This document shows positions 1 through 2,158 of a stretch of DNA of 34,395 bases, piece by piece (positions within the stretch are counted from its first letter, which is position 1; each line of letters starts with the position of its first letter). The stretch is from Candidatus Nomurabacteria bacterium (lineage in GTDB: Bacteria; Patescibacteriota; Minisyncoccia; Phycocordibacterales; UBA5272): the NCBI GenBank assembly GCA_943354975.1, contig CALRDS010000003.1, forward strand, positions 1 through 34,395, given 5' to 3'. The notes beneath the pieces are model-generated. The model made no database searches. It was given only the letters and a program-made list of their open reading frames with translations, and was not told the DNA's origin. The position numbers and the translations under genes are program-made.

Positions 1-4
1 CCCC

Positions 5-754
5 ATGCCTTCTCCCGAACTCTGCACACAACTCCAAGAAAAACTAGCATCTCTTCGCACCATTGAGAAAGAAATGCAAGATCTTCAGAAAAGACTCCTA
101 ACTGAAGGCTCTTCTTCGGTTGGTGAAGTAAAAAAGGCTTTTCTTGCAAAAAATACGAAAGCAAAATCCCTAAAAATAGACTTAGAAAAACTCCTTAGAG
201 AAGCGTCCCCGGATGTACGTAAAGACACACCTGAATCCATTAAGAAACTCCTAAAGGAAATTGGTACTCCTGCTACCTTGGATGAATCGTTTGAGGGAGG
301 CATAATTGCTCTTGAAATAGATAAAAAGACTCTAGAAGCATTAAAGACGTGGGATAAGGCAAAGGATGCATATAAGAAGGCAGATAATGCCTCTCCATCA
401 TGGATATGGGACGAATTAGACAATATTCCATACACTGCCCCAACCTCTTCATCATACGGTGTTCTCGTACTCAATCATGGAGAAACCACACCTGCACAAA
501 GAGATAAGCTAGTGGCAGATTTAGACAAAAAAGGATTCCGTCCACTTGAATTCTCTGAATTGGTAGCACTCGGTATCATGAAGCCTGAATATAACAAAAG
601 AAACGAAATACTAAATACATATAAGAAATACTCTCTGGGCGGTGATTCTCAGTCTCCGTGTCTCGGCTGGCCTGGCGTCGAGCGTAGCTTGGACGCGAGT
701 GTTGTGTCGATTGTCTGGGGTGGGCGTAGTCGGTTCGTGTTTGTCCGCAAGTAG
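5..754 (+). CDS. DGR target (variable) protein with N-terminal coiled-coil-like region and C-terminal variable repeat, probably C-type lectin-like fold
   Basis: 249-aa ORF whose last ~40 codons align to a nearby non-coding copy differing only at adenines; C-terminus ...W..RSRFVFVRK resembles DGR targets. The start is at the window edge, so it is uncertain. Confidence 0.88.
   Translation: MPSPELCTQLQEKLASLRTIEKEMQDLQKRLLTEGSSSVGEVKKAFLAKNTKAKSLKIDLEKLLREASPDVRKDTPESIKKLLKEIGTPATLDESFEGGIIALEIDKKTLEALKTWDKAKDAYKKADNASPSWIWDELDNIPYTAPTSSSYGVLVLNHGETTPAQRDKLVADLDKKGFRPLEFSELVALGIMKPEYNKRNEILNTYKKYSLGGDSQSPCLGWPGVERSLDASVVSIVWGGRSRFVFVRK
632..721 (+). repeat. DGR variable repeat (VR)
   Basis: Ungapped 90-nt alignment to 1077-1166; 18 mismatches, all opposite A in the other copy (12 A>G, 4 A>T, 2 A>C). 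Confidence 0.95.
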
Positions 755-875
755 AACTTAGATTTTAGACACTTTGCTTAGGCTTTAGGCCTTTTGACTT
801 TTCGAATTGAAAATAAGACTGGGAATATAAGAATAAGAAAGGGAGAGGTATACTGGGGAGCGAGAGTAGATAATG

Positions 876-1340
876 TATACAAGGGTACTCCTTTGTATCA
901 TCGAAATCAGTAGGCTGTAGGCGAGAATTTTTGCGCACATGTTGTACAAAAAGAGTGTCTACGGTGTTTCAAAAAAGAAATCTACTTGGCGCATATATAT
1001 TGGGCATTATGATGCCGACTTAAATACAATACATGGTTGTGACTATGTATGGTGGGAAGCACGTATATATGCGAAATCTCTGGACGGTAATTCTCAGTCT
1101 CCATATCTCAACTGGAATGGCGACAAGCGTAACTTGAACGCGAATGATGTGTCGAATGACTGGAATGACTCTATGAATAAAGTCCTTATTTAGCAACAAA
1201 AAGTGACATAGAGCTGTAATGTTATAGGTCTTGTTTGTGTCACTTTTGTCACTTTTTACTAGTGCTCGAGACGCGTCGTTTCAAGTTCTCTTAAATATAG
1301 TAAAATGTCCTTACAGGGGTTGACCGACTACGGTTCTAAC
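876..1340 (+). ncRNA. Putative structured DGR RNA containing the TR (boundaries approximate)
   Basis: Nested stems: 909-914/981-986, 916-923/957-964, 990-999/1064-1073, hairpins 1003-1016 and 1029-1050, and an AAAAGTGACA/TGTCACTTTT stem at ~1199-1257; G-U pairs favour the + strand. Confidence 0.55.
1077..1166 (+). repeat. DGR template repeat (TR)
   Basis: AAC/AAT-rich copy of the VR (25 adenines, 18 substituted in VR; all 65 non-A positions identical). Confidence 0.95.
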
Positions 1341-1390
1341 TCGAGACGCTCCGCCAAAATTGATAGTTTGCTATACTTAAGTAATAATAT

Positions 1391-2158
1391 ATGCCCCCAA
1401 TAGAAAAACTTGAGCCGATGAGCAAAATGGAAAAGTGGAGTATAAAGACAAAGAATTTTTTAAAGATTAAAGCTATTTCTTATGGTGTGAGTGCTGCTGT
1501 TGGTGCGGGTGTTGGATATAAAGTTCAAGAAATGGAAAGAGCTGTGACTGGATATAGTCCTGACAAACATGAAAAGGTTATAAAAGATATTGCTGCAACA
1601 AAAGAAAAAGTAGATTCTTTTGAGGAATTCAAAAAACAACAAACAGAAAAAAGAAAAAATAGCATTAAAGAAATGGCGCTTGGGTTTTTGTCTGATATAA
1701 AAGAGAAGATTAAACAAAATGGTGTAGACCCTAAAAAATATTTGGAAAACACAGAGATGTACAGAAATTTGCTTTCAAAATATTATGATACTTTAAAATT
1801 TATAGATGATGTCTCATTACTTGCTCCAGCATTATTAATGTTTATTATGTTGGGTGGATTTTTGAGTAGAAAATTAACCGAAATGAAAGGAGATGCAGTT
1901 CAAAAAGAGCAGATTACTAGAATAATTGCAAAGATAAATGAGTTAGCTGATAATATTAACGCAATTTATGGACAAATTCAAAAAAATGGTCCAGAGTCTT
2001 TAACTGAAGCTGTAGCTGCAGACGTTAGACGAGTATTAATTGCTAGTAAAGAGGCATTTCCAGAAGCAGAATCTCTAATTGAAGATAAAGTTTCTCAAGA
2101 GCGAAGTAGTCTAGAAGAAAATAATAAAAAACCTCCAGAAGGTTCAGAATTATCTTAA
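1391..2158 (+). CDS. Hypothetical membrane protein (two hydrophobic segments, coiled-coil-like regions)
   Basis: 255-aa ORF; TGCTATACT extended -10 upstream; no family recognised. Confidence 0.7.
   Translation: MPPIEKLEPMSKMEKWSIKTKNFLKIKAISYGVSAAVGAGVGYKVQEMERAVTGYSPDKHEKVIKDIAATKEKVDSFEEFKKQQTEKRKNSIKEMALGFLSDIKEKIKQNGVDPKKYLENTEMYRNLLSKYYDTLKFIDDVSLLAPALLMFIMLGGFLSRKLTEMKGDAVQKEQITRIIAKINELADNINAIYGQIQKNGPESLTEAVAADVRRVLIASKEAFPEAESLIEDKVSQERSSLEENNKKPPEGSELS

Follow-up and report, generated by a model that had tools for sequence, protein, structure and literature searches.

Target gene, variable repeats and gene content of the locus

The window, by which we mean the whole stretch of 34,395 nt analysed here, is the start of contig C3 in genome G000, an assembly of 579,640 bases in 41 contigs that is 91% complete. 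It opens with a target gene, the C-terminal part of which is 44% identical to residues 395-560 of a PcfJ-domain target protein in the relative G028; a variable repeat (VR) lies in this gene and a template repeat (TR) further downstream on the same strand (Table 1). Comparing the VR with TR positions 1077-1168 on contig C3, we found 19 mismatches, all of them at TR adenines, and a second copy of the end of the target gene, located on contig C22 of the same genome, carries a VR that likewise deviates from the TR at adenines only (11 of 11 mismatches). As all VR/TR mismatches fall at TR adenines, we regard the repeats as the template/variable pair of a DGR. Compared with each other, the two VRs of the genome deviate at positions 720, 723, 726 and 728 as well. 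In the Pfam search among the 28 ORFs of the window, the genes 3' of the TR turned out to be a 255-aa ORF without known family and then GAPDH; neither an RT (RVT_1) nor Avd was found by Pfam among these ORFs. The 255-aa ORF (1391-2158) shows no significant Pfam family, and no homologue of it stands beside the related intergenic elements described below.

Table 1. Features of the first 1360 nt of the window.
Feature	Position	Strand	Description
Target gene	5..754	+	ORF of 249 aa, no Pfam match
VR	632..728	+	At the 3' end of ORF 5-754; 632-723 aligns with TR 1077-1168
Small terminator-like hairpin with T-run	780..792	+	3' of the target gene
-10-like box	849..854	+	TATACT; family box conserved at the same offset
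Entire 5' scaffold domain of the DGR template RNA	860..1076	+	Examined by folding, homologues and covariation
Hairpin 1	873..901	+	873-875/899-901 and 877-885/890-898, loop 886-889
Middle domain	909..986	+	Candidate closing helix 909-914/981-986 around a long interrupted hairpin
Three-way junction	990..1073	+	Basal stem 990-999/1064-1073, hairpins 1003-1007/1012-1016 and 1029-1037/1042-1050
TR, 3'-truncated	1077..1168	+	26 A in 92 nt; VR homology
Tail to in-frame TAG	1169..1193	+	Not clearly homologous to 729-754 at the VR 3' end, nor to relatives' TR 3' ends
Conserved intergenic stretch, outside the DGR element	1195..1360		Common to 16 non-DGR loci of the genus

The end of the target gene and a 105-nt spacer occur in two downstream contexts (window 1-859 and G000:C22:1-360, locus L002): on C3 the shared sequence is followed by the structured region and the TR, on C22 by a minus-strand tRNA region, and each copy has a VR of its own. 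Both continuations after position 859 are present in Logan contigs from 4 runs, and the depth over 175-609 is about twice that over 1219-2600. The doubled depth and the two branches of window 1-859 mean either that each genome has the gene twice or that two strains are present.

A conserved structured RNA domain precedes the template repeat

The earlier note, made from the sequence alone, had described the TR as embedded in a long, multi-domain structured non-coding region. For the part 5' of the TR, folding clearly exceeds that of shuffled controls: the plus strand of 860-1080 has a minimum free energy (MFE) of -68 kcal/mol compared to -48.9 +/- 3.9 kcal/mol for the shuffles (z = -4.86; 0 of 200 as good), while the minus strand reaches -43.4 kcal/mol (z = -2.29; 7 of 200 shuffles as good). 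Window 862-1168 could be aligned with three genomes of the same genus at 73-81% identity, and already among these few sequences the 10-bp stem in front of the TR shows compensatory changes. From five copies, the window copy among them, we built a covariance model, R1; as the window copy belongs to the seed, its own R1 score is no evidence. The model yielded 81 matches (80 distinct) from genomes of Patescibacteria, aligned as A5, of whose cells 84.4% form standard pairs and in which both partners have changed in 62 of the 68 pairs. A5 has a covariation score of 0.631 as compared to at most 0.114 when the partners are slid by 1-3 columns, and none of 500 shuffles scored as high.

As A5 and the corresponding alignment of metagenome copies (A10) were fitted to R1, and thus lean toward the structure of the model, we carried out two additional checks. 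When 23 of the 81 sequences were aligned with MAFFT, blind to structure, RNAalifold returned the same five helices, and compensatory double changes were seen in 43 of the 48 predicted pairs. For a metagenome replicate we took a 20-nt probe from a single-stranded scaffold junction, which is present in at least 119 metagenome contigs; 80 contigs were fetched, and 76 of them match R1. In these 76 copies (A10), 81.7% of the cells are paired and 57 of 68 pairs are double-changed, with a covariation score of 0.443 (controls, 0.095 or less). An exact 30-mer of the window scaffold is absent from the metagenome contig collection. Several G-U pairs of the scaffold are close to invariant (e.g. 74 of 78 cells at one pair), and their conservation fits an RNA read from the plus strand. 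Taken together, 860-1076 is a genuine conserved structured RNA domain of the plus strand, which we refer to as the scaffold.

Helices of the scaffold

All 5' helices named in the earlier note recur in the 81 homologues and the 76 metagenome copies, and the stems are both conserved and covarying; the helix closing the middle domain is a candidate. In A5, the hairpin 877-885/890-898 is paired in 92% of the cells, with double changes in 8 of its 9 pairs, and the two parts of the long hairpin of the middle domain (915-923/956-964 and 928-937/943-952) are paired in 85-90%. The note had read the first of these parts as 916-923/957-964, which is one base off; 915-923/956-964 is the correct register, and the other elements stand as named. 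A trial structure with helix 915-923 one base out of register was paired in 26-34% of cells. In the three-way junction, the 10-bp basal stem is 97% paired and all 10 pairs covary, the hairpin 1003-1007/1012-1016 is 94% paired, and the outer four pairs of 1029-1037/1042-1050 are 98.7% paired (A5 in each case). The basal stem ends at 1073 and the TR starts at 1077, leaving 3 nt between them, which bears out the observation that this stem ends just before the TR homology.

The closing helix 909-914/981-986 shows compensatory changes at 913-982 and 914-981 and forms in the MFE fold of 876-1340; it was not predicted from the structure-blind alignment (RNAalifold, 23 sequences). We consider this helix plausible.

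Several further pairings were tried and rejected. R1 contains a 5' helix GAGUAGAU/AUCUACUU, in which 981-987 would pair with the 5' end in competition with the closing helix; it is 69.5% paired in A5 and 55.9% in A10, and two central pairs fail in 67-68 of 69 cells. A 3-bp helix of R1 also failed (62% paired in A5, 56% in A10). An all-against-all search of the columns for additional covarying pairs, including pseudoknots, gave three isolated off-structure pairs only, which we took as noise. Finally, pairing of a conserved 5' motif with the linker that follows the TR found no support and showed no covariation, as the linker varies and the 5' motif is constant.

Distribution and gene context of the scaffold family

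Within the genus, R1 gives 28 full-length matches in 17 of 53 genomes. An even sample of the order has matches in 40 of 151 genomes, representing 39 of 131 genera, and 20 of 151 genomes sampled from the phylum have matches, other classes included (G000 is counted in all three sets). Related loci were seen in three Nomurabacteria and Paceibacterota MAGs and in one of Gracilibacteria. An RT-based scan of genome contigs, for which the peptide patterns were too narrow, gave 4 loci, and the RT-based scan of viral contigs revealed no relative. The scaffold family is thus widespread among DGRs of Patescibacteria.

In 60 of the 81 loci we found one common layout, namely target gene with VR, promoter, scaffold, TR, terminator hairpin, inverted avd and RT, with Avd on the minus and RT on the plus strand at fixed distances. 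The remaining loci comprise 8 with Avd or a remnant of it only (3 of these with a short flank) and 13 with neither Avd nor RT. The genes of the relatives are recognized by Pfam as RVT_1 (E about 1e-19) and bAvd (E about 1e-12). An upstream VR-like repeat of at least 80 nt on the same strand is present in 67 of the 81 loci, and 1103 of the 1211 mismatches in these repeats are at TR adenines. In 60 of these 67 loci with a detected VR the TR homology starts 2-6 nt past the basal stem. The avd stop codon lies 90-286 nt beyond the scaffold end, which in most intact relatives is between a few and about 60 nt beyond the TR; the rest of the interval between TR and RT is antisense avd, and the RT gene is arranged head-to-head with avd. 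At this head-to-head junction, between +480 and +640 counted from the end of the scaffold, 42 of the 81 loci have a run of 7-12 G; a run of that kind elsewhere in the locus was seen in 1 of the 81 only.

Signals suggesting a separate transcription unit

A TATAAT-like hexamer precedes the scaffold in many loci: among the 80 distinct loci, 26 have it at -9 and 22 at -8, and 11 more at -6 or -5. The family box is often preceded by TG, and further upstream lies the terminator hairpin of the target gene. From the position of the box in the window, the RNA probably starts near 860-862. In the family a linker, short and conserved, separates the TR from a covarying hairpin that carries a T-run. Scored by simple rules for terminators, 60 of 81 loci qualify as compared to 1 of 76 control segments inside target genes, and the terminator-like hairpin starts at a median of 133 nt past the scaffold end. 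On the opposite strand, the avd stop codon is inside or beside this hairpin, which leaves little room for a 140-nt spacer of the kind found in phage BPP-1 unless it is antisense to avd.

As promoter, scaffold, TR and terminator follow each other in this order in 60 of the 81 loci, the RNA appears to form a transcription unit in its own right, with avd displaced rather than absent. At the level of the family, the template RNA therefore looks like a stand-alone unit, with both ends read from consensus signals. Among RNA sequencing runs, none was listed that contains the locus (window 400-1700). This modifies two proposals of the earlier note. The stand-alone DGR RNA that it suggested is well matched by the family, with its -10-like box and terminator-like hairpin, but the window copy is a truncated remnant. 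The scaffold indeed occupies the interval between VR and TR in which BPP-1 carries avd, but avd itself is found inverted after the TR in 60 of 81 loci.

The conserved stretch 3' of the template repeat

The hairpins that the note had described 3' of the TR did not hold up as RNA structure. The inverted repeat 1198-1208/1247-1257 is present, but folding of 1169-1390 is near the level expected by chance (plus strand z = -1.85, 8 of 200 shuffles as good; minus strand z = -0.53), and in the alignments of homologues of 1195-1360 covariation was seen in 3 of 22 and in 0 of 10 pairs. Homologues of this stretch occur in 16 loci of the genus, none of which contains the scaffold or homologues of RT, Avd or the target, and the neighbouring genes vary. 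The note's 3' hairpins do not belong to the RNA family. Conserved within 1195-1360 are repeated TGTCAC/GTGACA/TGTAAC boxes, which look like DNA-level sites, and two direct repeats CTCGAGACGC (1265-1274 and 1341-1350) flank a promoter-like stretch. The region may be the operator array of some regulator.

Truncation and decay of the window copy

Mismatches between TR and VR at positions other than adenine begin at 1169, three of them at 1169-1171. The TRs of relatives extend about 35 nt past the equivalent of 1168, and the extension resembles the end of the window VR; with its homology ending at 1168, the window TR has no IMH/IMH*-like 3' end matching the VR 3' end. As the VRs differ at 720-728, beyond the reach of the present TR, the TR that wrote them was longer. 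Neither linker nor terminator hairpin follows the TR in the window. The junction 1168/1169 is bridged by Logan contigs in 4 freshwater runs from 2 studies, which rules out an assembly chimera; the truncation is in the DNA and not an error of this assembly.

We then turned to the whole assembly of G000 (91% complete), in which the RVT_1 profile has 0 matches and tblastn queries with three relatives' RTs found nothing at E values up to 1. With 91% completeness in 41 contigs, an RT could sit in the unassembled part. One avd homologue is present elsewhere in the genome (G000:C28:562-882, 43-45% identity). Two more scaffold-TR modules were found, on C28 and on C8: the former retains the full TR along with terminator and avd, but its junction G-run is not followed by an RT, and the latter is cut within the terminator hairpin. 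On C28 the G-run of the avd/RT junction is kept (905-915, L027) and is followed by unrelated DNA where the RT is expected. Besides G000, five genomes of the order sample contain the scaffold without an RT match (G086, G145, G148, G154 and G196; one of them a single contig), and the recurrence of such genomes points to decay as a common fate. Modules of scaffold, TR and VR without RT are found at L046, L040/L047/L048, L051, L059, L063, L072 and L077, some with an avd remnant of 29-56 aa, and adenine-only mismatches occur in RT-less modules (17/17 at L046, 21/21 at L040 and 9/9 at L072). The copy in the window is a 3'-truncated remnant that has lost linker, terminator, avd and RT.

Comparison with known systems

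Scanning the window against Rfam 15 gave no match at the gathering score, and a search with nine loci of the family at E up to 1 gave only two chance matches (a microRNA family and NrrF). Our full-text literature searches did not turn up any account of such a domain in front of the TR, and the supplements of Wu et al. (2018) and Handa et al. could mention upstream RNA structure. The scaffold RNA is apparently undescribed, in keeping with the suggestion of the earlier note that it might represent a new RNA class.

Among the closest known systems is the DGR of phage BPP-1. According to the accessible part of Handa et al. (bioRxiv 10.1101/2023.10.23.563531), its RNA consists of the 3' end of avd, the TR and a 140-nt spacer (Sp), a stop element is formed by base-pairing between the spacer and some 10 nt upstream of the TR, and the spacer holds Avd-binding, priming, thumb-ring and RT-binding parts. 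Judged against that part of the paper, the family resembles BPP-1 in that the TR is embedded in structured RNA, that a duplex lies directly upstream of it, where in BPP-1 cDNA synthesis must stop, and that in intact relatives a stem-loop lies directly downstream. Over 99% of its length, the RT of the family shares 30% identity with Brt of BPP-1. Unlike in BPP-1, the large structured part (about 220 nt) is 5' of the TR, with about 50 nt (linker and hairpin) 3' of it, and the duplex in front of the TR is built entirely from upstream sequence, whereas BPP-1, as described in the same text, combines upstream and downstream sequence. With filters off, R1 reached at best 3.4 bits (E = 6) in the BPP-1 locus and, when three other phage DGR loci were added, at best 11.3 bits (E = 0.044), a match inside an RT gene; neither this search nor the Rfam scan revealed homology to the BPP-1 RNA in sequence or structure. 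The survey of other DGRs by Handa et al., CPR included, covers in its accessible part only the 40 nt before and the 100 nt after each TR (bioRxiv 10.1101/2023.10.23.563531).

In gene order, inverted avd and host phylum the intact relatives correspond to the architecture B3, TR-(avd)-RT, to which 90% of the CPR set belong in the accessible text of Wu et al. (2018, PMC5758913); the window copy differs from B3 in that the avd and RT that define it are absent. The PcfJ-like target domain is also shared with CPR DGRs (category g in the same text), and DGR clade 2 is given as confined to Patescibacteria in the part of Roux et al. (2021, PMC8144416) that was available. Both surveys, to the extent that their text was accessible, describe genes and repeats and no structured RNA before the TR. 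A further likeness is to RT-1 to RT-19, structured RNA motifs beside RT genes that are included in Rfam, of which RT-10 sits in the BPP-1 DGR between TR and RT (Weinberg et al. 2017, PMC5737381, accessible part). The scaffold, too, is a structured RNA beside RT genes; unlike RT-10 as described there, it lies 5' of the TR, and it has no Rfam match.

Retrons offer another parallel. Their msr-msd RNA is a stand-alone structured RNA that serves as both scaffold and template for a dedicated RT, with priming from a conserved branching G and msDNA as the product. The template RNA described here resembles it as a stand-alone structured RNA; unlike in retrons, its template is a protein-coding repeat that is copied into a target gene.

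Interpretation

The most probable reading, in which we have considerable confidence, is that 860-1168 represents the front two thirds of a template RNA gene of a Patescibacteria-type DGR, the cassette of which has decayed in G000. An intact RNA would be about 400 nt long, running from the promoter through a 5' scaffold of about 220 nt, a TR of about 125 nt and a short conserved linker to the terminator hairpin. The scaffold is made up of hairpin 1, the long interrupted hairpin and the three-way junction, the basal stem of which ends 2-6 nt before the TR. By analogy with BPP-1, the scaffold might do from the 5' side what the 140-nt spacer does there from the 3' side of the TR: it could act as an RNP platform binding RT and Avd, and the basal stem may be the duplex that halts cDNA synthesis at the 5' edge of the TR. 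The arrangement would then amount to a 5'/3' permutation of the BPP-1 design. In G000 the TR would have been cut at 1168 and linker, terminator, avd and RT lost, and the two VR copies would still hold the purely adenine-type differences left by an earlier, longer TR.

A cassette still in use, in which RT and Avd would be supplied in trans to a solo template RNA from genes next to the avd on C28 or in the unassembled 9% of the genome, seems improbable to us, although a number of observations speak in its favour. Every scaffold helix is intact in the window and both VR copies differ from the TR at adenines only (19/19 and 11/11); the genome has two further scaffold-TR modules and one full avd, and C28 keeps the G-run of the avd/RT junction, though unrelated DNA follows. 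RT-less modules with adenine-only mismatches also recur in other loci (L046, L040, L072). However, the window TR lacks the roughly 35 nt for the VR 3' end, as well as linker and terminator hairpin, and the VRs vary at sites to which the present TR no longer reaches. Neither the Pfam profile nor tblastn with three relatives' RTs (E up to 1) detects an RT in the assembly, and the five order-sample genomes that also have a scaffold without RT, one of them in a single contig, argue for decay as something common. We therefore prefer a decayed cassette.

Two other explanations would remove the folded region from the template RNA altogether. It might merely adjoin the TR, as a small protein gene, a cis-regulatory leader or an sRNA, and in fact an 84-codon ORF runs from 939 into the frame of the TR (939-1193), and 10 of 81 scaffolds are free of stops over their full length in one frame. 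But stops interrupt all three frames in the other 71, for which reason we dropped the coding interpretation; moreover, ORF 939-1193 has no Pfam match, and the substitutions are compensatory in stems and show no codon pattern. With the TR following the scaffold in at least 67 of 81 loci, and Avd and RT in 60, a region outside the retroelement is very improbable. Pairing could also act in the DNA, as a cruciform or a recombination site for retrohoming, and DGR targets do need DNA hairpins downstream of the VR, as stated in the accessible part of Wu et al. (2018, PMC5758913). Against this, many of the conserved G-U pairs would become A-C mismatches in the complementary strand, folding of the minus strand is poorer by 25 kcal/mol, and the element sits between a promoter-like box and the TR instead of directly 3' of the VR, which makes a function in DNA a most remote prospect. 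A conserved RNA of a decayed DGR cassette hence remains the reading we adopt.

More tentatively, and with rather less than even confidence, we propose for the family a permuted autonomous template RNA, in which the domain that binds protein and controls synthesis would lie 5' rather than 3' of the TR, and which would be transcribed independently, from promoter to terminator; several such modules could be served in trans by one RT-Avd. A shared scaffold acting as the handle in trans would explain the RT-less modules with adenine-only VR differences, including the three in G000.

To our knowledge, DGRs are the only natural targeted protein hypermutation systems in prokaryotes, and we know of one phage only for which the control of the RT by RNA has been worked out. 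Patescibacteria hold a large share of the known DGRs. Taken alone, the window is a modest result, being a broken copy; the family it led to provides a strongly covarying RNA domain as a concrete object to clone, probe and image. The position of the scaffold predicts that control elements may also be located on the opposite side of the template, and R1 detects DGR template genes, orphan and decayed ones included, with no need of an RT.

A minor observation concerns the arrangement of the locus: in run X1 a single contig of low depth (2.2) connects window position 2131 to 869 via 31 other letters, which suggests another arrangement or a related strain in which the scaffold follows the end of the 255-aa ORF.
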